A stretch of DNA of 46,310 bases from a phage. Made by a program: the position numbers and the translations under genes. Below, in pieces: positions 2,600 to 44,533 of this stretch. A model generated the notes under the pieces. The model made no database searches and was not told the DNA's origin. It was given only the letters and a program-made list of their open reading frames with translations. Where the stretch lies: assembly GCA_012455605.1 (NCBI GenBank), contig GCA_012455605.1_3618.2; one strand, given 5' to 3'. Positions within the stretch are counted from its first letter, which is position 1, and every line of letters starts with the position of its first letter.

Positions 2600-5197
2600 A
2601 TGCGTATTCAACATAACATTGATAACGTATTTCAGATGATTGAGGGGCACAGGAAGTGCCTCGATAACAACACAGGTATTACCAACACCCCTACACAAAA
2701 TAAGCTAGTAAACCCTGATGGTCTTATAGCTGCAGGGTGGGCAGGTAATAAGATAAATAATGATTGGGCAATGCATGAGTCCCAAGCTGTGTTGATTCTG
2801 GGATACATTGAAGCATACAGGGCATCGAAAAGCGATTTCTATCTGGATAGGGCAAAAGATGCTTGGGAAGCTTATAATAGTCATCTTCTGGGTGCATATG
2901 CAGTAGAAAGTAAAATGCAAAGATTGTCCCACTACCCTCTATCCACAGATGGGGTTCCATCACATGGTGGGTTTAAAGATGTGGTGGTGTCTTTTACCAA
3001 TGGTAGAGGAAAAATTCCAGCTGGATCTCCGACATGGGGAGAATACCTGGACAAGGCATTCCAAGCGTATAACGGTGTGTTAGGAAGAAACACTGTAGAC
3101 TCTGATGTTTACGGTGGCACAGATGCTAACCCAGATTGGACAACATCCGGATTAAGTTGGTGGGTCGAGTGGTACATAGCATGGGATGGTAACCGCTATT
3201 GGGCTAACGGTAGCATAGCCGACAGTGGTCATACGTCTGTAGAGTTCGGCACAATCCAATTACAAGATAAGGGTGTTACAGGCAGCCACAAGGTGACCTA
3301 TTGTGTAAGATTACCTCAAGAGCAGGGTGGATCGGTGATACCTGCAGGATCCCCTGTAATTGTAAATCCTATAAACGTGGTTGCAGATAATCAGGCCCCA
3401 GAGTTGGACGGGGAAGAAATGTGGTGTGACGCTTGTTATCAACTCTACACCTTGACAGGTGAGGAAAAGTATTACACCGCGTTTGAACAGTCTTACAACA
3501 AGTTGCTTAATTTCAGTGATATAAACGCCTACGACAAACTGTTTAGGAAGACCACGTTGATTAAGGCACCGTTTACAGATGGTACTTGTCTTGTTGCAGG
3601 AACAGTTCCTGTCATGAGCAGGGACAGTGACGGGTATATCAATTTTAGAATGAACGCACGCCAGCCTTGCGAAATAATTCAAAAAGGGACTACATACAAA
3701 ATAGGCAGAGATGCTGAAATTGTTATGAATTTCGGAGGAGAAGGGGTTCTGTTCCAGCCACATTTCATCCTTAATGATGGCAACAATAACAAAAAACAGT
3801 ACAGGATAGGGGTTCCTTTTGGAGGGGCAGAGGTAACAGAAATAGTCGCCAAGGTTACTGATTTCGTAGAGGTAGTTGGTAAAGACGGTAATCCGTATCT
3901 CTTACCTAAAGAGGAAAACATTGTCGTAAGCGGTGGCGCTAGTGTTAGTATGCAGTATGATACCGACATTTACAACCACTCTGACAACTTCACCCGTTGT
4001 AATATAGCAAGAGGTAAAGTAACTTTCAATTTTGGAAGAGAGATTTCTTTAAACTCAGTAACTTATCGATCAGATGATGAGATGGTAAGGGTCAAATTTC
4101 TTGACAAAGACAGGTGGTTATGGTATGCTGATCTATATGCCACTAATGGACAATGGGTAACAGAAACTCTTACTCTAGGAGATTTCAAACTAGATCCGAC
4201 ACAACCTCATCACACCGAAGAAGAGATTAAACCTTTCTTTGCTAATCCTAAGGGGCTCACCTCTGTAGATTTCAGCCTAAGCGACAGACAGATAGGTAAT
4301 GGCTTGTTTGATCTGTACTGCGTAAACACGCTGCCGCAGTTCTATATTGCAGATAGGGATGCTTATCTAATATGGTTTAGCGTATGGATGGCAAGCAAGA
4401 CAGAATCAACCGCTAAGGTTGGTGATTGCTATGTCAGAAACTACAAGCAAGGTGCATACAGGCACACACCGGGTGTGTTCCCTGCCGGAAAGGTGATAGA
4501 TAAGGAAAACTATCTCTTAGAGGAAAAGCCAAATTGGCCCTACCCTGGCATGCAATACCCAGCAGTATACTGCATGGGTGCAGAAAACATAGATCGCCAT
4601 AGATTGTCAAATACAATAGGCTTTCTGTATGACGCTCAAGTCTGGTATAATAATACATTTAAGACAGAGGGTCCAGTTGCCTCGCGTTATGTATGGCAGA
4701 GAGGTAATGAAGGGCTGACTGGTTGGTGGGAGATGGTAGATAACTCTAAGCTCCAGTCAAGATCTTTTGTTGCTGCGTGCCGCACAATCTATGAGCTCAA
4801 GAAACATAAAGAACCTGTTGATGAAAGATTATTCCTGTTCTGCCAGAAATGGGCATGGTTTCTCAACAGATTCCAGTCATCTCATTCAGGAAATCTGCCT
4901 ACAGACTTTAACACCTCTGGGGGATATTCTTATCAAGACAGAGGGGACAGGATGTGGGTGGTAGGTGAATGGCTTGCAGGTTGCTGCTGGCTAGGTCTGT
5001 GCGGGTATTCAGAGACAATACCTCAAATAGATATTGTTGTAGAAGCCTGTATGAAGCTACTGCAAAAGCACCACTTCATCAATGGGGATAATGTTTTAAA
5101 CGGCTGCTGGGCAGTTTCTGATCCGGTGGGCTATCACTCTGGCGAAATCCTTCGCGGTCTGGGCCTCTATGCTCAATACCGTGGATTGTACCTTTAA
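2600..5197 (+). CDS. Tail-associated large protein, possible polysaccharide-degrading enzyme (depolymerase-like)
   Basis: ATG 2 nt after stop of 1930 gene. 865 aa. N-terminal region (GWAGNKINNDWAMHESQAVLILGYIEAYRASKSDFYLDRAKDAWEAY) is reminiscent of alpha/alpha-barrel glycoside hydrolase/epimerase folds. Function is inference only. Confidence 0.4.
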   Translation: MRIQHNIDNVFQMIEGHRKCLDNNTGITNTPTQNKLVNPDGLIAAGWAGNKINNDWAMHESQAVLILGYIEAYRASKSDFYLDRAKDAWEAYNSHLLGAYAVESKMQRLSHYPLSTDGVPSHGGFKDVVVSFTNGRGKIPAGSPTWGEYLDKAFQAYNGVLGRNTVDSDVYGGTDANPDWTTSGLSWWVEWYIAWDGNRYWANGSIADSGHTSVEFGTIQLQDKGVTGSHKVTYCVRLPQEQGGSVIPAGSPVIVNPINVVADNQAPELDGEEMWCDACYQLYTLTGEEKYYTAFEQSYNKLLNFSDINAYDKLFRKTTLIKAPFTDGTCLVAGTVPVMSRDSDGYINFRMNARQPCEIIQKGTTYKIGRDAEIVMNFGGEGVLFQPHFILNDGNNNKKQYRIGVPFGGAEVTEIVAKVTDFVEVVGKDGNPYLLPKEENIVVSGGASVSMQYDTDIYNHSDNFTRCNIARGKVTFNFGREISLNSVTYRSDDEMVRVKFLDKDRWLWYADLYATNGQWVTETLTLGDFKLDPTQPHHTEEEIKPFFANPKGLTSVDFSLSDRQIGNGLFDLYCVNTLPQFYIADRDAYLIWFSVWMASKTESTAKVGDCYVRNYKQGAYRHTPGVFPAGKVIDKENYLLEEKPNWPYPGMQYPAVYCMGAENIDRHRLSNTIGFLYDAQVWYNNTFKTEGPVASRYVWQRGNEGLTGWWEMVDNSKLQSRSFVAACRTIYELKKHKEPVDERLFLFCQKWAWFLNRFQSSHSGNLPTDFNTSGGYSYQDRGDRMWVVGEWLAGCCWLGLCGYSETIPQIDIVVEACMKLLQKHHFINGDNVLNGCWAVSDPVGYHSGEILRGLGLYAQYRGLYL

Positions 5198-5232: not shown

Positions 5233-8200
5233 ATGGCTGATATTAAAGTTGTCAGAATTGAATCTCTTCCTGCCACTACCGCAGTGACAGAGGATGATTA
5301 CCTGGTTGTTCAACAACCAGACCTGACCCGTCGTGTAAAAATTGGCGATGTTGTCCATGTGGATGGGACTGTTTCTCATGTAATCTCCTTTAAGGAAGGT
5401 GGTAAGTTAAACGGCCCAATGGATTTTGCCTACTTCGAAGAGGAAGACCTCTACCTGCGTTGGAAAGGCGAATTTCCACACACTGTTCCTGCACTATCTT
5501 CACCGTACGCTGATGGTGGGATTACTGACGCTGCATGGATGGTATATACTGACCCGTCCTTAAGGGAGGAGTTGGAATCTACCATTGGCGCATCTATGAT
5601 CATGACAGCCGAAGGGCAGTCTGTCCAGGATGTAATGGATGTTACTGTTCAGACAGCTAACGATGCTAAAGCCCTTGCACAGCGTGTAGATTTTGGTACA
5701 GTGCACACTGTAGGTGATGTTATCCACCTTGATAACTTTGTTGGCCCTGCAGTTATTGAAGAGGGAAGAACCACCAACTATCCCTCCGTAGCAGCTGGTG
5801 AAAAATTTCTGAACGGTGTGGTATCTCGTCGTGATACTACAACTGTTGATGGTATTTTCCGTGGAGCTACCTCCGGAGCTATGTATACCATCGCAGTAAC
5901 CAACGGTGTAGCGACAACAAAAAGAATAGCACTTCGTGATGAATTTAAACGCCTGGAGGCAAACAACCCAACAAGAACAGTTATCCGTGCTGGAGATGAT
6001 TTAAACACGGCAGGGTACTTGCAGCTTGATGCAACAGGCCGTTGGGGTATGTGGAACCAACAAACAGCCTCGTGGCAACCTCTTGCTATAGAGCAAGGCG
6101 GTACAGGGGCCAGAGATGCCGCTGGAGTCCGTATCAATATCGGGGCTTTCTATAAGCAACGTGCAGCCCTTGAGCCAAATTTCAATATCAATAACTTGAC
6201 TGGTAATCAGGATGGTGTATACTACCAGCCGATGACTGCTTATGCAACTGAGGCAAATGGTTACCCTGCAGGTTCTGGTGCTGGTCACTTGATTGTTTGG
6301 CAGAACAATGCTAACGGCGGTACAGGTTGTCGTCAGGAATACTACCCATTCTCTAACGTAGATGTTTGGTATTTGAGAACCTATCAGGCCAACACAAACC
6401 AGTGGACTGCATGGCAGCCGATGGTCAGACCTCGTAACGATGATACCTTTAGAGCGCACATCGGTCTTGGTCCTAGAAATACCCCTACCTTCGGGCACAT
6501 TTACCTGTCTCAAAGTTCTGCTGATGTTAAGTCAGCCTCGGGTATTGTTAACGGGGACAAATACAGCGCTGACGGTGTCCTTGAGCATGGATATAGGATC
6601 TATTCTGAGGTAAGAAACGACAATAAGGCTTGGTTGACAATCCACCTGCATAAAGGTGCAAAAGGATCTGAAACTCACAGATATTTAGGTTTCCGCGAAG
6701 ACGGAGTATTAGACTGCCCTAAATACATGCAGGTTGGGGATCTCACTGGTCAGCTGACAAACTGGGGACTTGGAGAGTGGATCCGTAGTTCAGGGGCAGA
6801 AAGAGGCTTCTGGGGGTCCAAGAAAGCCGCCAAGATGGTTGTCTGGGATGGTGGGATGGACGAATCCGGTAACGGCACTCTGGAATGGGGTGTTTATAAC
6901 AACCGGAAGGCCAAGTGGGAACCTTTACCTCAAGCCGCAGGTGGCACTGGAGCTACAACTTTAGCAGATGCTCAGAATCTGTTCAAAGTTCCTATAGCAG
7001 CAGGTGTGAAAGACTTCTTAACACTGCCAAGAACCGCAGGGATGGAAGATGGGAAATACTACCCGATCATCGTTAGAACAGATCCGTACTATGCTCCAGC
7101 AACTGGTACTGATATTACCATAGTTACCAGATCGTCATCTGGAAATGACCCTATGAACTGTGCTACCTTACAGTGTCACTATAGAACTGGTGGTTGGACA
7201 GACAGAGGAGACTCTTTCTACGGGGTAGTAAATTTCTACCAGAATGAAAAAGCACTTCTTGGGATGGTTGCTCCAACAAGGGGTAAACAAGAATATGTTG
7301 CTTTCTATGCAGAGGCGCGTGCTTTCCCTGTCAGCATATACGCAAGTAGAAATGTTGTCGAGGTGTTTACCAGGGAGCAAGATTACCAGGTTGGCTCTGT
7401 AACAGACAATCAGGACGGTGTTAAGTTCGTTGCACCTCTCCAGTCAGCAGATTTAAATCTGGCTGTTCTCGGAGATAACAATACCAACACCAGACCTATT
7501 GTTGACTTCAAAGGTACCTCTGGGTTCTACACTGGCGGCGGCACACAGTGGCACTATATAGGCACTGCTGAACGCTATGCGATAATGAGCAAAATGAACA
7601 TGCCTAAAGTAGAGCTATGGGCTGACGGTTTTGACTATTTGTGCTACAGTGGTCCTAGAAAGGCGCTATTCTCTAACGCAGGATTCCAGTGTGCATCAGA
7701 TGGAACAGAGGATCTAACTAACGGCACGTTTACCTCTAAATGCGGTAATGGTGCTGGCCTTAAAGGTCAAGCAGAGTTCAGGTCTACTCCAGAGGCTGGT
7801 CAAGTTATTGTTCGAGATGTTGTGGGCACAGCTCATAGATTCTACAACTTCAATAAGGATGGTACTTTTTCAGCCCCAGGTGGTTTTGTATGTCATACTG
7901 GTGGAGACTGGAACAACCAGTTCGGGCCTAATAACCCGTCAAAAATAATGGCTGGTAATGTTAACGGTCCACAAGACACCATGGTTGTAGGAGGTTTATC
8001 TGTAGGATTCTCGGGAAACTACGCTTTCCAGATTGCTGGCAGACAAAGTAACTTATACACCAGGTCTATAGAAGGCGGTAATCACCACCCTTGGAATAAG
8101 GCTATGCAGCACAGGGGTCAGGGTCTCGGTACCTCAGACCTTGACACCTATAATGGGTTGTGGGAAGGCATTTACCATCAATCGGCAAATAATGATGCAA

Positions 8201-18933: not shown

Positions 18934-19974
18934 ATGTCAAAACCTAGTTTTCCATTAGAGATTTGGGCAGAGGAGGATCAGGTTCTGCCTAACACCCACA
19001 GACAGAACAGGCTACGCCCGATTGATGATTTGTGGAGAAAAGGTTGGGATCTTGGTCAAAAGCCCTCATGTGAAGAACTTAACTATATTTTCAATATGCT
19101 CGGAACTTGGGCAAAATACATTGCTGACGAGCAGATCCCCGCTCAAGAAGGCCGTTATCTGGTACGTGATAATAACTTGAGTGATCTTTTGAACATTCCT
19201 GTTGCCCGTAGAAACCTTGGGATTATTACTAAGGAAGAGGCAGACGCCAGGTATGTAAAAGTTACAGGTGATACAATGACAGGCCCATTGGGTTTGCAAC
19301 GTATCAACTTTAAAGCTGCCGAGACAGATAAGGCTTGGATAGAGACAACTATTGGCCCAGATAAGACAACTCTCGACTTTGGGTTAAGTGATAATACTGG
19401 GGCGTTTGATGATGGTGGCACATCTACGGTAGATGCGTTTCGTTGGAGATTCCAGCCAACTCAGCCGGATATTAATCCAGAGTTCACTTTGATGTACCTT
19501 AACGCGATCACGGCTAACCGTGCGCTGTTGAAAGTGGTAGGCAATGTTGAAGTTGTCGATAACATGAGGTGCAATAACCTTACTATCAGCAATACAGCAA
19601 CATTCACCAACTGTAATGTGGCTAGTCAGTTGACGGCTGGGTCGGTATATGTTAATGGTGGTGCAAGTTGTGACAGTATGGTTGTAAGAAGCCAGCACTG
19701 TGTTGTCGGTAACAGAAATGTGGTTCGCTCTGTGAACGGAGTGACGGCTAACGGTAACGGTGATGTAACGATCACTATCCCGCAGACAGGTGTGCAAGAC
19801 ATCAGAATCGGTGCAAGACTTGTGGACGGAGTTTCTGAATCTCCAATCCGCAACGGCTACGTTGTCACAGGCTGGCATTTCGGTGACAAAAAAGAGATGC
19901 GTGGTTCAACCTACTGGGCAGGACCTTTACAAAAACTTGTAAATGGTCAATGGATCACTGTTAATTATGCATAG
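18934..19974 (+). CDS. Tail fibre protein (paralog A)
   Basis: 346 aa. N-terminus MSKPSFPLEIWAEEDQVLPN...KGWDLGQKP and C-terminus YWAGPLQKLVNGQWITVNYA conserved with gene 20989; fibre motif VARRNLGI; followed by a Tfa gene. Confidence 0.65.
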   Translation: MSKPSFPLEIWAEEDQVLPNTHRQNRLRPIDDLWRKGWDLGQKPSCEELNYIFNMLGTWAKYIADEQIPAQEGRYLVRDNNLSDLLNIPVARRNLGIITKEEADARYVKVTGDTMTGPLGLQRINFKAAETDKAWIETTIGPDKTTLDFGLSDNTGAFDDGGTSTVDAFRWRFQPTQPDINPEFTLMYLNAITANRALLKVVGNVEVVDNMRCNNLTISNTATFTNCNVASQLTAGSVYVNGGASCDSMVVRSQHCVVGNRNVVRSVNGVTANGNGDVTITIPQTGVQDIRIGARLVDGVSESPIRNGYVVTGWHFGDKKEMRGSTYWAGPLQKLVNGQWITVNYA

Positions 19975-19988
19975 ATCGGAGGACTAGC

Positions 19989-20573
19989 ATGAAAATACTT
20001 CAAGAGTTTAAACTTTACCAACCGGGATCTGGCGAATACCACGCCAACAAGGAAACCAAGGAGCTGACCCCTCAAGAGGTTGAGGATTACACCGCATACA
20101 CTGGGTATTTTTTACGTAATGATGATGGCGATTGGTATGTGCAGTCACGAACATTACGACAAGAAAATCCGGGTTGTATCTTCCTACTTGTTGACGAGAA
20201 GGGAATTCTTAAGACATCTACAGAAGAACCTGATGCCTTATGGCCTGCTCCAGGTCTTCGTGTGGTTATCGCCAAAAAAGAAGAGGTACCAGAAAACATT
20301 ATGCTTCACCACGACGCTTTGCGTTTAGTTGGTGATGAATTTGTCACAGATAATGAATTCTTTGTTCAACAGGCAGAGGGTGTCATAGAGACAGAACTTG
20401 CTTGGGCTACTGCTAGAATTGGTGCCTATCAAGACATGATTGACCTTGAATATGATCTTACTGATGACCAGAAACGTAACATCAGAGATTTGAAAATGTA
20501 CAGGGTAAAACTTCTTGAAATAGATACATCTAAAGCCCCTGACATTTTCTTCCCGGAGCGACCTACCCTCTAA
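19989..20573 (+). CDS. Tail fibre assembly chaperone (Tfa / gpG-like)
   Basis: 194 aa directly after a fibre gene; C-terminal signature KMYRVKLLEIDTSKAPDIFFPERP matches the conserved Tfa motif (YR..L...D...AP.I.WP..P). Confidence 0.75.
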   Translation: MKILQEFKLYQPGSGEYHANKETKELTPQEVEDYTAYTGYFLRNDDGDWYVQSRTLRQENPGCIFLLVDEKGILKTSTEEPDALWPAPGLRVVIAKKEEVPENIMLHHDALRLVGDEFVTDNEFFVQQAEGVIETELAWATARIGAYQDMIDLEYDLTDDQKRNIRDLKMYRVKLLEIDTSKAPDIFFPERPTL

Positions 20574-20584
20574 GAGGAGGTGTT

Positions 20585-20899
20585 GTGGAGTTGGATTTGG
20601 CGGCATTGTACGGTATCTGCATGGGTACCGTTGTCCCGATCTGTGTATGGGCTTTCAACCAGTGGCACACCAAATGGAAAGGCATTTCCAAGAGGTTGGA
20701 TGAACTGGAGAAAGACCTCATCTTAGTGAAAAACAGTATGGTTACAAAAGATAAACTTGATTCCGTTATCGAGACCCGGTTAAGCAAGCTAGAGGCCGAT
20801 ATTAACGACCTTAAGCAGGATGTCAGGACAGATGTCTCCGGTATCCGAGCTGATGTACAAAAGATTTTGCACATGCTCGTAGAGCATAGTAAAAGGTAA
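20585..20899 (+). CDS. Small membrane protein with N-terminal TM helix and coiled-coil tail (holin/i-spanin-like or fibre accessory)
   Basis: GTG start 4 nt after AGGAGG. Hydrophobic LAALYGICMGTVVPICVWAF followed by charged heptad-like sequence (LDELEKDLILVKNS...LSKLEADINDLKQDV). Confidence 0.35.
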   Translation: MELDLAALYGICMGTVVPICVWAFNQWHTKWKGISKRLDELEKDLILVKNSMVTKDKLDSVIETRLSKLEADINDLKQDVRTDVSGIRADVQKILHMLVEHSKR

Positions 20900-22043: not shown

Positions 22044-22310
22044 ATGAAACTAACTCAGTTTTTATGGGGACTGGTTGCGGCATCTGATGACCCTACGAAA
22101 GTATCCCAATCTAAGCTATGGTCGAACATAGGTATGGCGGTGATGACTGGGGTGTTTATTCATATGGGGTACAATGATACGCTCCCTGAATGGTATGCGT
22201 GGATATACGCGCCTTCAGTAGCTTGCCCCCAGCTTATTAGCAAATTCATCTCGCTCAGGTGGGGTTGCCAGCACCCTGACCACGTTAAAAACGAAGAGCA
22301 AAAAGCTTAA
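22044..22310 (+). CDS. Small hydrophobic protein, unknown
   Basis: 88 aa, RBS AGAGGG; one hydrophobic segment LWSNIGMAVMTGVFIHM; between two fibre genes. Confidence 0.4.
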   Translation: MKLTQFLWGLVAASDDPTKVSQSKLWSNIGMAVMTGVFIHMGYNDTLPEWYAWIYAPSVACPQLISKFISLRWGCQHPDHVKNEEQKA

Positions 22311-35595: not shown

Positions 35596-36636
35596 TTATT
35601 TAACGTGTTTGAAAATACCTGCCAACTCGGTCATTGTCATGCGGGTGGTCTTCATAAGATCTGTCATAGCTTTCTCCATAATTGGAGATACTACCATAAA
35701 GTTTCCTTTAGTGAAACCTTTATTCCAGTCGGTCACCAACAGTGGTTTAAGTCCAGATCCGAGACGTTCACCAGTTAAAGCACAGCATTTGCGAATATAC
35801 GAACTCTTAAATTGGCTGAACGACAGATCAACTTTCATACCTGCATCGTAGAACGTTTGACAATAGAAAGTGTAAGCCTTAGCAATCTCAACATCATCAG
35901 GCAGTGCAGGAACTTCTTCTGCAATCTCCTCTTCGACCTCCTGAGGCTCTTTTTCCTCTTCAGAGTTCTGTTCTTCAATTTCTTCTGTCACAGTCTCGTT
36001 TACGATGTCTGAAATGTGTTTGTTGGCTGCACGATCAGCCATGAAATTTTTAAAGTCCTGCATTGGTGACATATCTTCCTCCTCTTCGTCAAATAGTGCT
36101 AGTTTATCTTCCTCTGTCCCGTATTGCAAGATGAAGTCTTCAAAAGTATAATCACCTTTCAATTTCTCCATACGCTCTTCGCTCAGGTGGAGCATCATCT
36201 GCTGGACAATTTTTCTATCAGTTTTGTCTTTTATCAAGATTGCAGTCTTTTTATCTACCAGACAGTCCTTCAGAGCGTTGCACCTCAATCCCACCACACA
36301 ACAATTATCAATTGAGTAAGGACCTTCATCATCTATCCGCTCTAGGGAGGGGTAGAAAGGATTTCCCAATCCGTTTTCATCTGTGTGCATGTCAAAAGGT
36401 ATAAGGGTATAGTCGCATACTCCATCTCCTAAAAGTTTTTTACCAAATAGGAGGTATTCTTCCCATGACAGGTCGAACTCTATATCCCGTTTCCGTGCAT
36501 TATTCTGTTTGCGTCTATATTTTTTGAGCAGGCGCTCTAACTCTTCTGGTGTATAATATTTTTCAAGATTCATGAGTTGTCTCTCGTGCTCTGTAAGTGA
36601 AGAAATCGTATCAATTGTCTTAACAGATGTCAACAT
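35596..36636 (-). CDS. HNH-like domain protein with tandem duplicated domain and acidic linker
   Basis: First copy DIEFDLSWEEYLLFGKKLLGDGVCDYTLIPF...PSLERIDDEGPYSIDNCCVVGLRCNALK matches the phage HNH pattern (..F.L..EE...CxYxG...PSLDRIDN.KGY...N...CC..CN..K). Second, degenerate copy VDLSFSQF...KCCALTGERL...PLLVTDWNKGFTKGNFMVV. Glu-rich low-complexity segment between. First gene of the minus block. Confidence 0.5.
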   Translation of the reverse strand: MLTSVKTIDTISSLTEHERQLMNLEKYYTPEELERLLKKYRRKQNNARKRDIEFDLSWEEYLLFGKKLLGDGVCDYTLIPFDMHTDENGLGNPFYPSLERIDDEGPYSIDNCCVVGLRCNALKDCLVDKKTAILIKDKTDRKIVQQMMLHLSEERMEKLKGDYTFEDFILQYGTEEDKLALFDEEEEDMSPMQDFKNFMADRAANKHISDIVNETVTEEIEEQNSEEEKEPQEVEEEIAEEVPALPDDVEIAKAYTFYCQTFYDAGMKVDLSFSQFKSSYIRKCCALTGERLGSGLKPLLVTDWNKGFTKGNFMVVSPIMEKAMTDLMKTTRMTMTELAGIFKHVK

Positions 36637-36651
36637 CAAAAACGTGTTGAC
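36629..36651. promoter_or_regulatory. Inverted repeat in divergent control region
   Basis: GTCAACA-tcaaaaacg-TGTTGAC (7-bp arms, 9-nt spacer) covering the start codon of minus gene 35596-36636 and overlapping the -35 of the plus-strand promoter. Confidence 0.4.
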
Positions 36652-36675
36652 TTTACTCTAAATCTCCGATATAGT
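36647..36675 (+). promoter_or_regulatory. sigma70-like promoter TTGACT-17-TATAGT for the plus-strand operon
   Basis: -35 TTGACT 36647-36652, 17-nt spacer, -10 TATAGT 36670-36675; about 40 nt upstream of RBS/ATG of gene 36716. Confidence 0.6.
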
Positions 36676-38944: not shown

Positions 38945-39214
38945 ATGTTATACCAGCAGTACGAACTTCGTGCAGAAAAAGAATTAAATTTTGACAAAGA
39001 TATCCACAGATATTATTATGGGAAAGTTAGAGGGCAATCAAGAAAGTGTACTCCAACACTCTTTTATGCCAGCAGACGACTAGCTCCAGAAGAGGCAACA
39101 GCAGAAAGGGTTGCATATGGCTGGAGAGTTGCGTATGATATTGACAGATCCGATGTGATGTCTGTTTTGGAAAACTTTGAAAACACTTACACACAAGTAG
39201 AGGACTTTTACTAA
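38945..39214 (+). CDS. Hypothetical protein
   Basis: 89 aa; AAGGAG RBS; stop overlaps start of ATPase gene (TAATG). Confidence 0.5.
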   Translation: MLYQQYELRAEKELNFDKDIHRYYYGKVRGQSRKCTPTLFYASRRLAPEEATAERVAYGWRVAYDIDRSDVMSVLENFENTYTQVEDFY

Positions 39215-40398
39215 TGTCAAGAAACGTATTCGAAAGTGGTCAAATCACTGTCCGCGAGTTGCCAGCTATTATTCAATTTGCCCAGCGTCATAACCGATCT
39301 GTCCTGATTTTAGGACCGATGGGTGTGGGGAAGAGTCAGGTGATGAAGCAGATTGCTGATAATATGTTCGGTGAGCGAGATGACAACCTGGTTGACGTGC
39401 GGCTGTCAGATAAAGATCCTGCTGACCTATCTGGACTACCTATCCCTGTAGAGGCAGATGGAACTACACGCACAGTGTTTGCAATTCCAGAATTTTGGCC
39501 TGCAGACTCGGACTGGAGCGGAATTATCTTTCTGGATGAGCTTACTCATGCAGATAACTACCTGCAGAAGGTTGCAATGCAAATTATGCTCGACCACAAG
39601 TGCGGCACCTATGCATTTCCTAAGGGCTCTGTTTTTGTAGCTGCAGGTAACCGTGCTACAGATGGTGCTGTTCTTTCAGCGCTCGAAGCTCCTCTGGCTA
39701 ACCGCTTTATCATTGTAGAAGTTACAAGCAATGCAGAGGTATTTATTGAGGACTACGCATTCCTTAATGGTGTGCATTCCTCTGTAATTGGATATCTGAA
39801 AAGAGTTCCATCAGCTATCGATAATTATGAGGCTATGGCTGAGATTAATTGTCCGTCTTTTGCCACACCGCGATCTTGGGTTGCTGCATCTGACATCCTG
39901 CACGATTTTGACAGCGGTATTATTTCTGACGCTATGGCTCGTGTTCTTCTGCAAGGTGCTATTGGTCACACTGCAGCGGTAGAAATCTGGACCTACCACA
40001 CCAAGAAACGAAACTTGCCAGAAATCGGTCGGATTATGGCAGGGGGTTGCAAAGAATATGTAGGTCCTAAGCAGCCAGATATCTTGTGGATTCTTGGGTC
40101 TGAAGGTTGTATTGCTATTCGGAATATGATGGAAAATGCAAGTGTCTCAGACGAAGATCTTGTTAGCTGCGTGGCAAACTTCCTCGATTTCCTTTGGGAA
40201 AATTTCAAAGATGAAAACCGAGACTTTGTATTCTCAGTCTTTATGGCGATGATGAAGCCCAACGCCCTGGGAAATGCCTTACTTATTGGTAAAGGCCGGG
40301 ACAAGATCGTTGCTCAGCTGATCAAAGCATATCCAAACCTGATGAAGATTGTAAAAGAGTTTGGTGAAGAGTTTAGCGCCATTTTAGCTAAAGCTTGA
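39214..40398 (+). CDS. AAA+ ATPase, MoxR/AAA_5-like
   Basis: Walker A LILGPMGVGKS (39313-39336), Walker B IIFLDELTHA, sensor region VFVAAGNRATDG, and ALEAPLANRF matching the AAA_5 C-terminal signature. Confidence 0.7.
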   Translation: MSRNVFESGQITVRELPAIIQFAQRHNRSVLILGPMGVGKSQVMKQIADNMFGERDDNLVDVRLSDKDPADLSGLPIPVEADGTTRTVFAIPEFWPADSDWSGIIFLDELTHADNYLQKVAMQIMLDHKCGTYAFPKGSVFVAAGNRATDGAVLSALEAPLANRFIIVEVTSNAEVFIEDYAFLNGVHSSVIGYLKRVPSAIDNYEAMAEINCPSFATPRSWVAASDILHDFDSGIISDAMARVLLQGAIGHTAAVEIWTYHTKKRNLPEIGRIMAGGCKEYVGPKQPDILWILGSEGCIAIRNMMENASVSDEDLVSCVANFLDFLWENFKDENRDFVFSVFMAMMKPNALGNALLIGKGRDKIVAQLIKAYPNLMKIVKEFGEEFSAILAKA

Positions 40399-40407
40399 GG
40401 AGGTTGT

Positions 40408-40788
40408 ATGGCTAAAGTAGGTAAGCGGGGAAACTACCTGGTGGTATTGACCGAGGAGCCGGAGAAAGAGTACGAATGCAGCTCCACTTGCGTGATCGAT
40501 ATCCGAGAAAAAGATGTAGATGAAATCTGGTTTAAAATATTGGACGCTTGCGACAGCAGTGACTATTTCTTCATCTATGTCAACGATAAAGCGGGGTTCT
40601 TCCATGATGATGGGGAGTTACCGTATGAAATCTATGAACTTGTAGAGGCTTGCCATCGTGGAGATGCGGAGTTGTTTGGTCTACGGCTGAAAAGTGGTAA
40701 ATTCTTCTATCAAGATGAATGCATAAATCTTCACAACTTCGTAGAGGGGACTTGCAACGATGGAGAGATTTTGGCACACTACGATTAA
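40408..40788 (+). CDS. Hypothetical acidic protein
   Basis: 126 aa, GAGGAGG RBS; followed by a terminator. Confidence 0.5.
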   Translation: MAKVGKRGNYLVVLTEEPEKEYECSSTCVIDIREKDVDEIWFKILDACDSSDYFFIYVNDKAGFFHDDGELPYEIYELVEACHRGDAELFGLRLKSGKFFYQDECINLHNFVEGTCNDGEILAHYD

Positions 40789-40802
40789 TTTCTAAGACAC
40801 AC

Positions 40803-40828
40803 CCCGCTTCGGCGGGGATTTTCTATTT
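40803..40828 (+). terminator. Intrinsic terminator (UUCG tetraloop hairpin)
   Basis: CCCCGC-TTCG-GCGGGG followed by ATTTTCTATTT; same 16-mer as at 14565. Confidence 0.75.
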
Positions 40829-40837
40829 GGAGCTATT

Positions 40838-41338
40838 GTGAAAATTAAGATCTTTGCTATTATTTTGAGCGCATTTTTATCGCTGCCTGTTGTTGCAGCA
40901 CCAAAACAAAAAGTATATCACACCTGCAAGCCGTCGGATACTAAGGAAAACATTCTAGCATGCAATATCTACAGGGAGGCTAGAGGGGATGGCACGATGG
41001 GTATGCTGGCATCAGGGTTTGCCACACTAAACAGGAAATCTCACCCCAAATACCCGGACACCATAAGAAAGATTGTCTACCAACCTAACCAGTTTTCGTG
41101 GACAAACCACGGCAAAACTTTTAAGGTGACAGAAAAAGATTCATGGGATCACGCTAAAAGTCTTGCAAAGATGCTTCTAAAGGTCTATAATAATAACCAT
41201 GTTGCATACATGGCTATGGATATAACAGGTGGAGCAACACACTACCATACAACAAAAGTACGACCGAAATGGGCAAAAAAGATGCAGAGGACAGCTCAAT
41301 TCGGGAGTCATATCTACTACAAGGAGCGCAATAAATGA
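40838..41338 (+). CDS. Secreted cell-wall hydrolase, SleB/CwlJ (Hydrolase_2) family; candidate endolysin
   Basis: GTG start 5 nt after GGAG. N-terminal signal-peptide-like MKIKIFAIILSAFLSLPVVAAP. Core NIYREARGDG...ATLNRKSHPKYPDTIRKIVYQPNQFSW...GGATHYHT...FGSHIYY matches the SleB-type pattern. Confidence 0.7.
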   Translation: MKIKIFAIILSAFLSLPVVAAPKQKVYHTCKPSDTKENILACNIYREARGDGTMGMLASGFATLNRKSHPKYPDTIRKIVYQPNQFSWTNHGKTFKVTEKDSWDHAKSLAKMLLKVYNNNHVAYMAMDITGGATHYHTTKVRPKWAKKMQRTAQFGSHIYYKERNK

Positions 41339-43317
41339 TTGTAAACAGCAATGAAACTAAAGCGGTGCTAACTGGGAATATGGAGGTAACCAGGGGATCA
41401 ATTTCCCTGAACAAAGAGACTTTTGGACTAATCATTAAAGGGATTTATGAAGATAAGGTGCTGGCAAGCTGCCGTGAACCAATCTTCAATGCTGTGGACT
41501 CTCATGTTGAGTCTGGACGGGGTGATGTACCGATCATCATTCACTCTCCTACAGATCTTGAGCCCTATTTCTTTGTGCAGGATGTTGGCCTCGGTATGTC
41601 AGAAGAGATGGTCCGCAACACTTTCATGAACTTGGGTGAATCCACCAAGCGCAACAGTAATGCCTTGGTAGGCAACAAAGGTGTTGGTTCAAAGGCCCCG
41701 TTCAGCATGGTAGACACTTTCGATGTAATCAGTGTGCACAACGGTGTGGAAAGCACATACCTATTGTTCTTGGACCAGGGTATCCCAAATGTCACCAAGA
41801 TCCGTGAGCGGAAGACTGAAGAGCACAATGGGGTAAAAGTTCAGTTTCATGTTAAGAAAGAGCATGTTCTGAAATATCGCACCGCCATTGCATCATGTTT
41901 GCGCTATGCAAAATTTCCGTTCACTGTCACCGATCCGATGACGAGCAAGATGCTGGAGGGAGACAAAGTAGAGGCGCAGTATTATTATGAAAAAGATGGT
42001 TGGAAGATGACCATCCTGAAGGGCTATACTAGCTCTGACGAGAGTCGTGTGGTAATGGGTCACCAACCTTACCGTTCTAAGTTCCTGGAAACACTAACAG
42101 ATTATCCTGCAATTTGTGTAGAGATCCCTATCGGAGATTGCAATATTAACCCAGGGCGTGAATGGACCATAGAAGGTCACGACGATGGTGGATTCCAAGA
42201 GCGTTTGGAAGCTTTTGTCAAAGAAGGCATTCGCCTTCGTGGAGCAGAAGTTGTTGCAGAACTGGAGACAGCAAAAACATCCTCAGAAGCACGCGAGATG
42301 ATGAAGAACAGTGGAGTGTTCGGGCACATTTTCGGTAAGAATTTTATGTATGACCGCTGGGAAGAAACAGGGCTAGGGAATTTGGGGGACTGCGAGATCT
42401 TCGCTGGCGGCTTAAATAAAGGCCGCATAGGTTACGCCTGCTACGGAAAGGTAGAATTCTTACGGGGAGTTTATTTAGTATTTAACGACGGAGACGGCAA
42501 ATATAACCGGAATAAGTGTAACTACTTAAGCGAGATCACCGGACGCAACGTTTTCTATTGCCGTAACACGGATCTGGTGGAAGAGTTTAAAGAAGCGGCA
42601 CACCACCCGTTCTTTGCAGATACGGTCAAATTGTTATCAGAGCTCCCTCGCCGACCTGCGAAGAAAGGTGAAACAAAAACTCATTACGAGCCAGGTTATT
42701 GGGTTAAAAAGCTTGAGAAGGATGGTTACTTCCGTCGTGAACGTATTACTAAGGCAGAGTTCAAGAAGATTAAGCACTGCATTCCTTATGAGGGTGATAT
42801 CCAACGTGGAAGTTGTTGGCTGGGACAGCTGAGTAACATCTACCAGCAAAATTATGACCGTGTGCGTGCGGCACTCCAGATTCCTGAAGGGGAAGACCTG
42901 TACCTGGTATCAGAATCCCGTCTGCTTTGGACTAATCCGGATTGCCAGTATGTTACAGAGAAAAATGTGGAACATTTGTTGAAAGAGGACGCCTGGAAAT
43001 TCTTACTGACTCGCGCAGCAAATGAAACTTCATATGACAGCCTGTATAGACAATTAGGGAAAATTATCCCCATGCAGGATTTTGGAAATTATCGGCCACA
43101 TTTCCACAAGTGGGAAGGTAACACCGCGTGGAAGCACAGTGAGCTAAATCATCGTGCCAAAATCTTAATCGCCAACCGGGTTAAGTGCGGAAAGGCCTAT
43201 ATTGCAAGATTGGAAAAGAAATATCCACTTTTGAAGCATGTGGGCTTGAAATATTGGGACACTCCTGCTATGATTGAATACCGTGAACTGATCGATACAA
43301 AGAATAACATCAAATAA
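41335..43317 (+). CDS. GHKL-family (Bergerat fold) ATPase, function unknown
   Basis: N-box EPIFNAVD (41476-41499), G1 box DVGLG (41581-41595), G2 box GNKGVG (41671-41688) in correct order and spacing within the first ~120 aa; 660 aa with unassigned C-terminal ~500 aa. No TOPRIM-like motif recognised. Confidence 0.65.
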   Translation: MIVNSNETKAVLTGNMEVTRGSISLNKETFGLIIKGIYEDKVLASCREPIFNAVDSHVESGRGDVPIIIHSPTDLEPYFFVQDVGLGMSEEMVRNTFMNLGESTKRNSNALVGNKGVGSKAPFSMVDTFDVISVHNGVESTYLLFLDQGIPNVTKIRERKTEEHNGVKVQFHVKKEHVLKYRTAIASCLRYAKFPFTVTDPMTSKMLEGDKVEAQYYYEKDGWKMTILKGYTSSDESRVVMGHQPYRSKFLETLTDYPAICVEIPIGDCNINPGREWTIEGHDDGGFQERLEAFVKEGIRLRGAEVVAELETAKTSSEAREMMKNSGVFGHIFGKNFMYDRWEETGLGNLGDCEIFAGGLNKGRIGYACYGKVEFLRGVYLVFNDGDGKYNRNKCNYLSEITGRNVFYCRNTDLVEEFKEAAHHPFFADTVKLLSELPRRPAKKGETKTHYEPGYWVKKLEKDGYFRRERITKAEFKKIKHCIPYEGDIQRGSCWLGQLSNIYQQNYDRVRAALQIPEGEDLYLVSESRLLWTNPDCQYVTEKNVEHLLKEDAWKFLLTRAANETSYDSLYRQLGKIIPMQDFGNYRPHFHKWEGNTAWKHSELNHRAKILIANRVKCGKAYIARLEKKYPLLKHVGLKYWDTPAMIEYRELIDTKNNIK

Positions 43318-43327
43318 GGAGACCAAG

Positions 43328-44533
43328 ATGATTTTCATCTACGAACATTTCAAAACCCGTAAAGAAGCACGAGACCGCCGTGCAGAACTTGAGAAGAAGG
43401 GTTTCACATGTGCCATTGAGAAAGGCGACACAACCTGGACACTGGCAGTGGGTGCCCCAGAGTTGTTCGATCCTGACCGTGACAGCGTCTGCTACACCCG
43501 TGAGGATTTTGAAACCCGCGAAGAGGCCCGTTTATTCCGCTATGGATTGGAAGATAATGGTAAGTACGCCATGATCTTAGACTTAGGCGAAGGTTCCGTT
43601 AAACGTTGGGGCGTGGTATACCCACTGTGTGTTGTTCACGGTGTGGGGTTCACTGGGGTGGCAATCAAGTCAGAAGAACCTTTAGTAGAAGTCAAAGATC
43701 CGGTGCTGGAGGTGGTTAGCAGTGTGTCTCAGCAACAAACTCGAAGCATCGAGCCTTTGGTAGTTATTTGTGGGGAACTCCTCCAGATCACCTGCAACGA
43801 AGGCATTTTTGAAATTCGCCGCAGCGAAAGTGAGGAAGTTTACCAGAAAGTCTTCGACCATATCTCTGTTCAGGAATATGACGAGGCAATTGGTGAAATC
43901 CTTGTCTGGCTGGAACGCAAGAATGAGTTCACCACACTTGCAGACAACCTGATCATGAAAGATGGTAAGCTCTACTACTACGGTGTAGAGATGCGATCCA
44001 CCATTGCAAAGAAAATTGAGAAAGATTATGCAGACGGAACGCTGGATGACCGCTATGTGAAATTCCTCGTTCGCCTGCTACGCAATCCTTCTGCAAAATC
44101 TGTAAACATGCTCTACGATTTTATGCAGGCCAATGATATTCAGATTGCAGAAGATGGTCGAATCATTTGCTACAAAGGGGTTCAGTTTAACGGCAGCAAG
44201 TGGGTAGATTGGCACAGTGGTAAAGTCCCACAATACCAAGGTGCTTTTGTATCCATGCCTCGTAACTTTGTAGAGGATGATCCTGAAGCTGCGTGCTCCT
44301 ATGGCTTACACTGCGCCAGCAAAGAGTATGCAAAGAGCTACGGCACTGTAATGACTGTCATGGTTGACCCTGCAGATGTAGTTAGTGTGCCATACCAACA
44401 CAATAGCGCTAAGTGCCGTGCATGCCGCTATGAGATTGTGGTAGCTCCGGAAGCACGCAAAGATGGAGACCCTATTGAATATGTAGTTGATCGTGACGGT
44501 AACACTATCGACATTCTTTACGAGGAGGCGTAA
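43328..44533 (+). CDS. Hypothetical protein with tandem N-terminal small domains and Cys/His-rich C-terminal domain
   Basis: N-terminal repeat HFKTRKEARDRRAELEKKGF / DFETREEARLFRYGLEDNGK; C-terminal SYGLHCASKEY...HNSAKCRACRYEIV. Stop overlaps start of helicase (TAATG). Confidence 0.5.
   Translation: MIFIYEHFKTRKEARDRRAELEKKGFTCAIEKGDTTWTLAVGAPELFDPDRDSVCYTREDFETREEARLFRYGLEDNGKYAMILDLGEGSVKRWGVVYPLCVVHGVGFTGVAIKSEEPLVEVKDPVLEVVSSVSQQQTRSIEPLVVICGELLQITCNEGIFEIRRSESEEVYQKVFDHISVQEYDEAIGEILVWLERKNEFTTLADNLIMKDGKLYYYGVEMRSTIAKKIEKDYADGTLDDRYVKFLVRLLRNPSAKSVNMLYDFMQANDIQIAEDGRIICYKGVQFNGSKWVDWHSGKVPQYQGAFVSMPRNFVEDDPEAACSYGLHCASKEYAKSYGTVMTVMVDPADVVSVPYQHNSAKCRACRYEIVVAPEARKDGDPIEYVVDRDGNTIDILYEEA

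Follow-up and report, generated by a model that had tools for sequence, protein, structure and literature searches.

The window analyzed here is a stretch of 46,310 nucleotides of phage DNA (contig GCA_012455605.1_3618.2 of assembly GCA_012455605.1). It is about 96% identical to vB_EcoM-ECP26 and belongs to Vequintavirus, the rV5-like myoviruses of E. coli, whose genomes measure some 136 kb; the window represents approximately a third of such a genome. An open reading frame at positions 40838–41338, which reproduces exactly the coordinates of the original prediction, has an ortholog in Escherichia phage V5 (NC_011041) with 99.4% identity over 166 aa. That ortholog is listed in rV5 Table S3 as gp2, "cell wall hydrolase", and the same name is used below. 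The rV5 and window genes share the GTG start, the upstream terminator t003, and the overlap with rIIA, and have no substantive difference. The features of the locus are as follows.

36647..36675, + strand: sigma-70-type promoter TTGACT-N17-TATAGT, rV5 "P010" (consensus scan, 10/12; rV5 Table S4)
39214..40398, + strand: MoxR-like AAA ATPase (rV5 gp4), the upstream "ATPase module" (PHROG 1297, ATPase, E = 2e-110)
40408..40788, + strand: acidic soluble protein of 126 aa (rV5 gp3), immediately upstream of gp2 (PHROG 12370, unknown function)
40802..40827, + strand: intrinsic terminator CCCCGC-UUCG-GCGGGG followed by AUUUUCUAUU, rV5 "t003" (terminator scan)
40829..40832, + strand: Shine-Dalgarno sequence GGAG, 5 nt before the GTG (read from the sequence)
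40838..41338, + strand: gp2, predicted secreted SleB-type (Hydrolase_2) peptidoglycan hydrolase, GTG start, 166 aa
40838..40897, + strand: predicted signal peptide, residues 1–20 (MKIKIFAIILSAFLSLPVVA), with a predicted signal peptidase I site at A20/A21 (hydropathy and rules)
40925..40927, + strand: Cys30 codon (TGC), one half of a conserved pair (alignment A2)
40961..40963, + strand: Cys42 codon (TGC), the other half of the pair (alignment A2)
40976..40978, + strand: Glu47 codon (GAG), predicted catalytic glutamate in the motif N-I-Y-x-E-x-R-G (conservation and SleB alignment)
41335..43317, + strand: rIIA with a GHKL ATPase domain (PHROG 612, RIIA, E = 2.9e-124; Pfam HATPase_c_3)
43328..44533, + strand: rIIB (PHROG 609, RIIB, E = 1.3e-61; so annotated in relatives)

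Orthologs of gp2 are found in more than 110 Vequintavirus records, labeled as SleB, cell wall hydrolase, or endolysin, and the last label is used in many of them. In the rV5 paper, gp2 appears in the supplementary table only, and its export and role are not discussed. The gene, its domain, the signal peptide of an ortholog, and the separate lysin are already in databases or the literature, such that little of this is new. For signal-peptide Hydrolase_2 lysins of Gram-negative phages, a literature search for experimental work gave annotation-level statements only. Judging from its sequence, gp2 very probably cuts the cell wall and reaches it by passing the inner membrane through the general secretion (Sec) system of the host.

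The original prediction described a hydrolase of the SleB type at this position, bearing a signal peptide that looks cleavable, and the Pfam, fold, and N-terminal features all agree with this description. The match to Pfam Hydrolase_2 (PF07486) spans residues 51–161 and profile positions 2–100 of 100 (E = 2.1e-19), and its score of 70.4 bits clears the gathering cutoff of 27 bits. A match to PHROG 938 ("endolysin") was also found (E = 1.7e-27), and sequence comparison with SleB catalytic domains gave E-values of 2.5e-6 (4F55) and 1.8e-5 (4FET). The AlphaFold (AF2) model has a pLDDT of 92.6, and the same two structures are its only significant PDB fold matches by Foldseek (prob 1.00; target-normalized TM 0.72–0.79, rmsd 2.7–4.1 Å). 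Glu47 is invariant among the aligned homologs (57/57), and its motif aligns with Y-G-E-S-R-G of 4F55 and 4FET, in which the glutamate (Y-x-E-x-R-G) is presumably the catalytic residue of SleB. By Pfam, gp2 consists of a single catalytic domain, with no second domain matched. These sequence features suggest that gp2 is most likely a single-domain murein hydrolase of the SleB/CwlJ type, likely a lytic transglycosylase that works through Glu47, and action on ordinary E. coli murein is assumed. Orthology to Bacillus SleB was considered and rejected, given the lack of the N-terminal binding domain and the E. coli host; only the domain is shared.

The N-terminus of gp2 reads MKIK-IFAIILSAFLSLPVVA up to the predicted cleavage site and AP after it. 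The n-region (M1-K-I-K) has a charge of +2, and the uncharged h-region of 15 aa (I5 to V19) has a mean KD of 2.6 and a composition of 59% I/L/V/F and 35% G/A/S/T. The cleavage region (V18-V19-A20/A21-P22) has a Pro at -4 and V/A at -3/-1. Signal peptides were called by hydropathy plus a rule-based filter over the 191 ORFs of at least 50 aa in the window; three passed, among which gp2 is the sole real gene and the other two are shadow ORFs. In the AF2 model, residues 1–20 form a detached helix of low pLDDT (59–72), with a linker between this helix and the globular domain. The orthologs in Mydovirus, Seunavirus, Certrevirus, Justusliebigvirus, Phapecoctavirus, T5-like phages, and Menderavirus have divergent signal peptides, all of which end with small-x-small residues (mostly A-x-A), and the signal-peptide rule is also passed by 33 of 37 metagenomic phage-type homologs. 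Moreover, both a signal peptide and toxicity upon expression in E. coli have been reported for the Certrevirus ortholog CB7_83 (PMC7344957). A lipobox ([LVI][ASTG][GAS]C) was sought in gp2 and none was found, with no Cys before residue 30, such that a lipoprotein was rejected. A sister clade of 80 sequences (about 155 aa) carries a lipobox (STASC) in place of the cleavage site, which indicates that this clade is exported too. Because the signal peptide of gp2 is tripartite and apparently cleavable, Sec export is the best reading. The suggestion of Sec-dependent export in the original prediction is thereby borne out as a reading, on the strength of the predicted type I signal peptide and its conservation; both export and cleavage are inferred from sequence.

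The two cysteines of gp2 offer a further hint on its location. In alignment A2 (57 homologs), Cys30 and Cys42 co-vary, with both present in 33 sequences, neither in 22, and a single one in two, and they are the sole cysteines of most mature sequences. This covariation, which is the basis for the pairing, is consistent with a disulfide in the periplasm.

The surroundings of gp2 are as originally described, between an ATPase module and a GHKL/helicase operon. The MoxR-like ATPase (annotated as MoxR ATPase in relatives of rV5 gp4) and gp3 lie upstream, and the operon downstream corresponds to rIIA-rIIB-helicase. The statements that gp2 has neither a membrane protein nor a holin or spanin as a neighbor also stand: neither flanking gene encodes a hydrophobic segment, and both adjoining proteins are soluble. 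For gp3, the best 19-residue KD is 0.77, and it is therefore not a membrane protein. The rIIA start codon overlaps the gp2 stop codon (ATGA), an arrangement consistent with translational coupling. gp2 lies in this rII/replication block, with some 11 kb between it and the structural module.

The neighborhood of gp2 varies among related phages. The order of SleB-like gene, (small transmembrane ORF), rIIA, rIIB, and helicase is kept in Vequintavirus, Mydovirus, and Seunavirus. Directly after the ortholog, a small holin-like ORF with two transmembrane domains (2-TMD) is present in 4MG, KB57, F5M2A, and two metagenomic relatives. This arrangement, found in Certrevirus, Seunavirus, and Mydovirus, resembles a lysis cassette. 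Homologs of these 2-TMD ORFs are absent from the window and from ECP26. Stephanstirmvirinae also carry a gp2 ortholog, with different neighbors. In T5-like phages, a signal-peptide Hydrolase_2 gene (falkor_96) lies outside any recognizable lysis cassette, and T5 has a separate endolysin of its own. A link between rV5 gp3 (T5.083-like) and the T5-like hydrolase was sought, and no match was found in the falkor locus.

Expression signals around gp2 point to limited output. The nearest predicted promoter upstream on the + strand is P010. No promoter was found between t003 and the gp2 start by the consensus scan, and none is listed there in rV5 Table S4. A search of the rV5-type sequence for gp2's own promoter gave nothing better than weak matches, such as AAGACA-N17-GATTTT, which was picked by eye. 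The t003 hairpin ends 11 nt before the start codon and has an MFE of -13.1 kcal/mol (z = -3.4 versus shuffles); rV5 Table S4 gives -16.0 kcal/mol. A hairpin with a U-run also precedes the ortholog in KB57, 4MG, F5M2A, alia, anhysbys, K8, IME-SM1, and two metagenomic contigs. Sigma-70-type promoters are located immediately upstream of the ortholog in alia, anhysbys, IME-SM1, and Certrevirus-like genomes. The spacing from Shine-Dalgarno sequence to start is 5–8 nt among orthologs. The start codon is GTG in the window and TTG in KB57, 4MG, alia, anhysbys, and contig L018 (four other genera), although these non-ATG starts are partly common by descent and represent about 3–4 independent lineages. 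The structural genes show enrichment of TGGTAAAATA, a motif resembling a late promoter, which is absent from the + (coding) strand at 36.7–46.3 kb. With a terminator directly upstream and a weak start codon, these signals suggest that gp2 expression is deliberately low and outside the late gene class.

The original prediction took gp2 as the only recognizable cell-wall hydrolase. This holds within the window, where Pfam found no other peptidoglycan-hydrolase domain in 20 structural-region proteins and tblastn with LysECP26, the gp129-like putative holin, and the 2-TMD ORFs of 4MG and F5M2A gave no match (best E 0.14 to 8.5). For the phage as a whole it is not supported. Outside the window, and about 70 kb from gp2, vB_EcoM-ECP26 encodes a cytoplasmic lambda-R-like lysozyme, LysECP26 (rV5 gp89), the locus of which is present in 121 phage records versus about 123 for the gp2/rII locus. 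LysECP26 has been purified and is lytic in vitro on permeabilized cells (PMC9728275), and rV5 gp89 has been termed the "obvious lysin", with gp129 as a putative holin with two transmembrane domains (PMC3606486). The N-terminus of LysECP26 is not hydrophobic, and without a signal peptide this enzyme needs a holin. In addition, an i-/o-spanin pair adjoins the terminase in ECP26 (likewise PMC7344957). The approximate positions in ECP26 are 17.5 kb for gp2, 77 kb for the spanins, 88 kb for the lysin, and 110 kb for the putative holin. As to whether gp129 could be the relocated counterpart of the 2-TMD ORFs behind the gp2 orthologs in sister genera, pairwise blastp of six small membrane proteins found similarity only between those of 4MG and KB57. 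A canonical set of holin, endolysin, and spanins, which the original prediction had named as grounds for its refutation, is thus present elsewhere in the genome, in a dispersed, T4-like form and not as one contiguous cassette. With the cytoplasmic lysin, spanins, and putative holin outside the window, the idea of gp2 as the only or principal endolysin, with holin-less Sec export as the lysis route, is not supported.

Two membrane proteins had been proposed to control lysis timing. ORF 22044 (rV5 gp29) has no convincing transmembrane domain: the best 19-residue KD is 1.05, and rV5 Table S3 lists none. ORF 20585 (rV5 gp31) has one N-terminal transmembrane domain and a coiled coil. As lysis-timing candidates, both ORFs are weak. 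The ECP26 copy of ORF 22044 is frameshifted.

Based on these patterns, gp2 is somewhat likely to be an accessory, Sec-exported second hydrolase, with the holin-dependent gp89/LysECP26 as the main lysis enzyme. Its role, timing, and level of expression are read from sequence features, and the mechanism would be as follows. gp2 would be synthesized as a precursor bearing a classical type I signal peptide, pass through SecYEG, and be cut by signal peptidase I after Ala20, and a Cys30-Cys42 disulfide would probably stabilize it in the periplasm. Main lysis would be carried out by the cytoplasmic gp89 (LysECP26) together with the separately encoded spanins and putative holin. gp2 would be a second, holin-independent periplasmic hydrolase; its gene comes first in the rIIA-rIIB-helicase block, which is of the early/middle, non-late kind, and its output seems to be kept low by the intrinsic terminator and GTG start. 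Its role would most likely be accessory: it may bring a small glycan-cleaving activity into the periplasm in advance, which would loosen the sacculus during infection and then aid wall destruction after the holin fires.

Alternatively, gp2 may be an early periplasmic murein remodeler that enlarges or loosens the sacculus during infection or changes the wall with consequences for superinfection, perhaps together with the membrane-associated rIIA/rIIB proteins, with which it would be co-translated, and with no part in lysis. The conserved SleB-like-rIIA-rIIB-helicase order, the ATGA overlap in the window, the early-type sigma-70 promoters before orthologs, the signals for low expression, and the placement of falkor_96 are all compatible with such a role. 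However, the rII synteny may be mere inheritance, as Certrevirus retains a gp2 ortholog without rII (PMC7344957) and the Stephanstirmvirinae ortholog has another gene neighborhood, and toxicity upon expression fits a bulk-lytic enzyme equally well. We consider this explanation unlikely.

We also regard as improbable that gp2 is the principal, secretory endolysin, restrained by the energized membrane and freed upon depolarization by a holin or pinholin in the manner of Lys44, with the lambda-R-like lysin as a redundant or auxiliary enzyme. A gp2 ortholog is common to all Vequintavirinae genera, whereas the type of cytoplasmic lysin differs by genus (PMC7344957). Given this contrast, and with orthologs in Stephanstirmvirinae too, gp2 could be the more fundamental lysis enzyme. 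The toxicity of CB7_83, the statement that CR3_087 is implicated in lysis (PMC7344957), the 2-TMD holin-like ORFs of the five relatives named above, and the numerous "endolysin" records point in the same direction. Nevertheless, this lineage lacks the 2-TMD partner, and rIIA overlaps the gp2 stop codon. Moreover, a protein required in large amounts late in infection would not usually have a weak start, an upstream terminator, and no late-promoter motif, and essentially every genome of the genus has a conventional cytoplasmic lysin, spanins, and a putative holin.

The remaining two explanations concern the N-terminus and the site of action. SAR (signal-anchor-release) endolysins are the usual exported lysins in Gram-negative phages, and SAR domains are uncleaved, Gly/Ala-rich, and leave the membrane on depolarization. 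The N-terminal helix of distant Hydrolase_2 homologs from Pseudomonas Pakpunavirus and Nankokuvirus is hydrophobic and lacks A-x-A, which would suit a SAR domain or permanent anchor that tethers an inactive enzyme until depolarization, as for P1 Lyz and phage 21 R. For gp2 this is very unlikely: the h-region of about 15 residues is strongly hydrophobic and not Gly/Ala-rich, Pro at -4 is followed by V-x-A at -3/-1, conservation extends to the cleavage motif but not to the sequence of the h-region, AF2 gives a detached low-confidence helix and linker, and the window has no pinholin-like neighbor. Finally, phage tails often hold a second peptidoglycan hydrolase, but gp2 is almost certainly not a virion-associated enzyme for wall penetration at infection, given that rV5 Table S3 labels structural proteins with MS evidence and has no such label for gp2, that the gene lies in the rII/replication block far from the structural module, and that a cleaved Sec signal peptide would direct the protein to the periplasm, away from virion assembly in the cytoplasm.

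The accessory role raises a broader puzzle, namely that large virulent coliphages of several families keep a Sec-exported murein hydrolase beside a holin-dependent lysin and also seem to throttle its expression. A tentative generalization, which we think is rather unlikely to hold, is that signal-peptide Hydrolase_2 proteins of Vequintavirinae, Stephanstirmvirinae, and T5-like phages are either conserved lytic transglycosylases of the periplasm or remnants of an ancestral cassette of secretory lysin and 2-TMD pinholin. In the first case, they would be non-late and deliberately under-expressed through the upstream terminator and GTG/TTG start, and would condition the sacculus during infection with no task in terminal lysis. 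If the remnant reading is true, the membrane partner would have disappeared from Vequintavirus and gp2 translation would have become coupled to rIIA, and wall weakening would be tied to the rII membrane-integrity system. Explaining gp2 would refine lysis models for rV5-like phages in therapy and biocontrol, and could point to gp2 as a muralytic enzyme that naturally exports itself and might be engineered as an enzybiotic.

Comparison with known systems helps to place gp2. Within the same genomes, LysECP26/rV5 gp89 is likewise a small, basic, single-domain muralytic enzyme, but it belongs to an unrelated fold family (PHROG 90), is encoded at a distant locus, and has been tested experimentally. 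Parallels in a sister genus are CB7_83 and CR3_087 of Certrevirus (Vequintavirinae), SleB-like orthologs with the Hydrolase_2 domain; the Certrevirus F5M2A copy is about 45% identical to gp2. In Certrevirus, a 65-aa holin-like ORF with two transmembrane domains overlaps the 3' end of the ortholog and rIIA/rIIB are absent, whereas the window has no such ORF and rIIA directly follows. Bacillus SleB (4FET, 4F55), a germination-specific lytic transglycosylase, shares the catalytic fold and the Y-x-E-x-R-G glutamate with gp2 at only 20–24% identity. SleB has an N-terminal peptidoglycan-binding domain that gp2 lacks, and gp2 additionally carries a Cys pair and a helix insertion (residues ~100–127). 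SleB proper targets the muramic-lactam-containing spore cortex of a sporulating host, whereas the substrate of phage-encoded gp2, with E. coli as the host, would have to be ordinary Gram-negative murein. The SAR endolysins of P1 (Lyz) and phage 21 (R), which work with pinholins, have in common with gp2 a Sec-dependent, holin-independent delivery to the periplasm of a Gram-negative host (predicted for gp2), and differ from it in that gp2 has a short, strongly hydrophobic h-region and a conserved A-x-A-type cleavage site. Lys44 of the Oenococcus phage fOg44 is reportedly Sec-exported with a cleavable signal peptide, and is said to be the sole endolysin and to adjoin a holin in a Gram-positive system. 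Like gp2, it is a murein hydrolase with a type I signal peptide and holin-independent export (predicted for gp2), although gp2 occurs alongside a conventional cytoplasmic lysin and lacks a membrane protein as a neighbor. By this analogy, export of the Lys44 type would best account for the route of gp2 to the wall.

The 6-kb region around the hydrolase gene shares 94–96% identity with more than 110 Vequintavirus (rV5-like) myoviruses of Escherichia coli, with vB_EcoM-ECP26 (ECP26) as the best annotated match. The gene, numbered gp2 in Table S3 of the rV5 paper (PMC3606486), encodes a protein that is 99.4% identical to the ortholog in Escherichia phage V5 (NC_011041) and about 70 other records, which are variously labeled as "cell wall hydrolase," "SleB," or "endolysin." The feature is real; databases already annotate it, and publications have discussed it in part. 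What makes it of interest is the possible role of a second, secreted hydrolase that is conserved and apparently throttled. The main features of the locus are as follows.

40838–41338, plus strand: gp2 coding sequence, 166 aa, GTG start, read from the sequence
40802–40827, plus strand: terminator t003 in the rV5 annotation, a GC-rich stem closed by a UUCG loop and followed by a U-run, whose end is 11 nt upstream of the gp2 start codon
36647–36675, in the window: P010, the nearest upstream promoter in the rV5 paper

The reading frame of the original prediction proved exact in coordinates and length, and its GTG is preceded at 5 nt by a Shine-Dalgarno sequence (GGAG). In profile searches, the product falls into Pfam family PF07486 (Hydrolase_2 or "Cell Wall Hydrolase," which covers the catalytic domain of SleB/CwlJ; E = 2.1e-19, far over the curated cutoff) and PHROG 938 "endolysin" (E = 1.7e-27); by sequence it also hits two SleB catalytic domains of known structure, 4F55 and 4FET. 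These two lytic transglycosylase domains are also the sole significant PDB fold matches (probability 1.00, TM 0.72–0.79) of an AlphaFold2 model made from 57 homologs (mean pLDDT 92.6, pTM 0.83). Glu47 of the motif N-I-Y-x-E-x-R-G is present in all 57 homologs and aligns with the SleB motif Y-G-E-S-R-G. We consider it fairly probable that gp2 is a periplasmic lytic transglycosylase, which would be exported via Sec, cleaved by signal peptidase, stabilized by a disulfide, produced sparingly as a non-late protein, and accessory to a lysis system of gp89 (the cytoplasmic lysin), holin, and spanins.

Neither flanking protein of gp2 is hydrophobic, in agreement with the claim that its neighbors are not membrane proteins. 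The MoxR-like gp4 accounts for the "ATPase module," and the "GHKL/helicase operon" consists of rIIA (PHROG 612, E = 2.9e-124; its HATPase_c_3 domain is the source of the GHKL match), rIIB (PHROG 609), and a RecD/PIF1-type helicase. The rIIA start overlaps the gp2 stop codon (ATGA), consistent with translational coupling, and no small ORF with two transmembrane domains (TMDs) intervenes in this Vequintavirus window. In KB57 (Mydovirus) and 4MG (Seunavirus), the SleB-like gene is followed by a 51- or 57-aa two-TMD ORF, rIIA, rIIB, and the helicase gene. In Certrevirus and two metagenomic relatives, all without rII, the order is SleB-like gene, 65–76-aa two-TMD ORF, and helicase gene. That gp2 is a non-lytic wall-remodeling enzyme functionally tied to rII appears rather unlikely. 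The holin-like two-TMD ORFs lie 3' of the SleB-like gene at the following positions.

L004 (KB57) 3536–3688: unannotated
L005 (4MG) 3536–3709: 4MG_271
L006 (F5M2A, Certrevirus) 3528–3725
L018 (metagenomic contig) 5531–5761
L019 (metagenomic contig) 6126–6341

The Certrevirus ORF was proposed as a class II holin by the CB7 authors (PMC7344957). Except between the KB57 and 4MG copies, these small proteins have no detected similarity across genera or to gp129, the putative holin of rV5, and the ORFs downstream of the SleB-like gene in Stephanstirmvirinae are soluble.

The hairpin upstream of gp2 has an MFE of −13.1 kcal/mol (z = −3.4), and no promoter between t003 and gp2 was predicted in the rV5 paper (PMC3606486). 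A comparable hairpin with a U-run is found 5' of the ortholog in every lineage examined except the T5-like falkor; the Ab03 hairpin has no U-run, and the region upstream in Vibrio phage helene has no clear terminator but does show a promoter. In Vequintavirinae/Stephanstirmvirinae lineages, the terminator-like hairpin and U-run abut the Shine-Dalgarno sequence of the SleB-like gene. In Stephanstirmvirinae, the hairpin is followed by a sigma-70-type promoter (TTGCAA-N17-TACAAT or TATACT). In Certrevirus-like genomes, it is overlapped by a promoter (TTGACT-N16-TAAACT, preceded by an A-rich element) that matches the early-promoter consensus given for Certrevirus (PMC7344957). The hairpin, promoter, and start regions compared are listed below.

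Window: 40789–40845
L004 and L005: 2940–3010 in each
L006: 2935–3010
L007: 2895–3010
L008: 2870–2992
L018 and L019: approximately 4930–5012

Most Vequintavirinae and Stephanstirmvirinae lineages start the SleB-like gene with a codon other than ATG: GTG in this window and TTG, with a well-spaced Shine-Dalgarno sequence, in KB57, 4MG, alia, anhysbys, and L018. Among the Vequintavirinae/Stephanstirmvirinae-type genomes examined, ATG occurs only in F5M2A and L019. The more distant orthologs in falkor, IME-SM1, K8, Ab03, and helene start with ATG. A motif resembling T4 late promoters, TGGTAAAATA (up to one mismatch), occurs 11 times in the window versus 4.3 expected. All nine plus-strand copies are in structural genes below 26.1 kb, none is on the plus strand of the rII/replication block (36.7–46.3 kb), and one minus-strand copy is at 36436–36445. 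The hairpin and non-ATG start look like a conserved expression-throttling layout, and together these sequence signals suggest that gp2 heads an early/middle unit with the rII and replication genes at low expression, a sensible arrangement for a wall hydrolase that exports itself.

The window covers about one third of the genome, and the lysis-gene map was taken from the full ECP26 genome. There, LysECP26 (rV5 gp89), a 156-aa lambda-R-like lysozyme (PHROG 90 "endolysin") whose N-terminus lacks a hydrophobic stretch, is encoded about 70 kb from gp2, and an i-/o-spanin pair adjoins the terminase gene. The rV5 paper termed gp89 the "obvious lysin" and proposed gp129 (two TMDs, basic C-terminus) as a holin apart from gp89 "as in phage T4" (PMC3606486). 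Purified LysECP26 lyses Gram-negative cells (PMC9728275). No LysECP26-, spanin-, or gp129-type gene lies inside the window. Among phage records, 121 contain the lysin locus and 123 the gp2/rII locus, indicating that the two co-occur throughout the genus, and we infer that this phage has both. Two muralytic genes were also remarked on in Phapecoctavirus (PMC10793346). According to the CB7 paper, a SleB-like protein is kept in all Vequintavirinae genera, and that of CB7 has a signal peptide and is toxic on expression in E. coli (PMC7344957). That gp2 is the principal "secretory endolysin" in the manner of fOg44 Lys44 is improbable. The original prediction is upheld in part: its narrower core, a Sec-exported hydrolase without a membrane-protein neighbor, stands, but lysis genes do exist elsewhere; putative holin, endolysin, and spanins are dispersed rather than in one cassette. 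With the rest of the genome taken into account, the puzzle of a sole hydrolase without a holin disappears.

About 16–23 GenBank records (MG0656xx) named "Campylobacter phage" are 93–99% identical to E. coli rV5-like phages at the gp2/rII and lysin loci, probably a naming or host-attribution oddity. The canonical lysin gene is followed by rV5 gp90 (68 aa; L002 38483–38689 in ECP26, outside the window), which carries a membrane-protein annotation. At the N-terminus, MKDFLLAILFMAACLACGVVFA↓GE resembles a signal peptide or lipobox and precedes a mature part of about 46 aa with two Cys. Rather than a holin, gp90 is probably a small protein that is secreted; a role as an RI-like antiholin is pure speculation.

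The cleavable-looking signal peptide of gp2 is upheld by both rule-based analysis and cross-genus conservation. The N-terminus consists of MKIK, IFAIILSAFLSLPVV, and A↓AP (arrow, putative cleavage site), with two lysines in the n-region, 15 uncharged residues in the h-region (mean Kyte-Doolittle hydropathy 2.6), and a c-region with Pro at −4 and Val/Ala at −3/−1. Cleavage after A21 is excluded because of Pro22, and this N-terminus contains no lipobox. Three of the 191 window ORFs of at least 50 aa pass a simple signal-peptide rule set; the two besides gp2 are shadow ORFs within real genes. Conservation is the stronger line of evidence. Across Mydovirus, Seunavirus, Certrevirus, Justusliebigvirus, Phapecoctavirus, a T5-like Epseptimavirus, and Menderavirus, the N-termini are divergent in sequence, and every ortholog has the n-h-c arrangement and, directly before a charged K-E/K-D stretch, a small-x-small site (mostly A-x-A). 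The same rule is passed by 33 of 37 metagenomic phage-type homologs. A sister clade (about 155 aa) has a lipobox (STASC) in place of the signal-peptidase site, indicating that it is also exported. The STASC-type gene (L016 6001–6468 and L017 143–610, ~57.8-kb contigs of GCA_050655815.1) sits in a different phage-like element of about 58 kb with integrase, Thy1, NinX, and DUF932 genes, so exported Hydrolase_2 enzymes occur in unrelated types of phage. That gp2 is a SAR or anchored enzyme is very unlikely, since its short h-region is dominated by I/L/V/F, not by Gly/Ala, the cleavage site is conserved, and AlphaFold2 leaves the h-region as a detached, low-confidence helix, all arguing for a cleaved signal peptide. 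Export by Sec is a good prediction on these grounds. With few exceptions, mature phage-type homologs have exactly two Cys, aligned with Cys30 and Cys42, and the pair is all-or-none in the alignment (both, n = 33; neither, n = 22; one, n = 2), the pattern of a structural disulfide. In E. coli, structural disulfides form in the periplasm only. For this predicted periplasmic protein, a role as a virion enzyme is extremely improbable.

Two ORFs had been put forward as membrane proteins controlling lysis timing. ORF 22044 (22044–22310; 88 aa, rV5 gp29) is not a convincing candidate: it matches PHROG 1322 "membrane protein," but has no segment of normal TMD hydropathy, and rV5 Table S3 lists no TMD. 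Its ECP26 copy is unannotated and split by a 1-nt frameshift (L001 36592–36854), reflecting either a sequencing error or a dispensable gene. ORF 20585 (rV5 gp31, 104 aa) has a single TMD at its N-terminus together with a coiled coil, and the order at 18934–20899 is tail fiber, Caudo_TAP tail-fiber assembly protein, and gp31. In T4, gene t follows gene 38. The gene order here is similar to the T4 37-38-t arrangement; gp31 is a weak candidate for a holin-like lysis protein.
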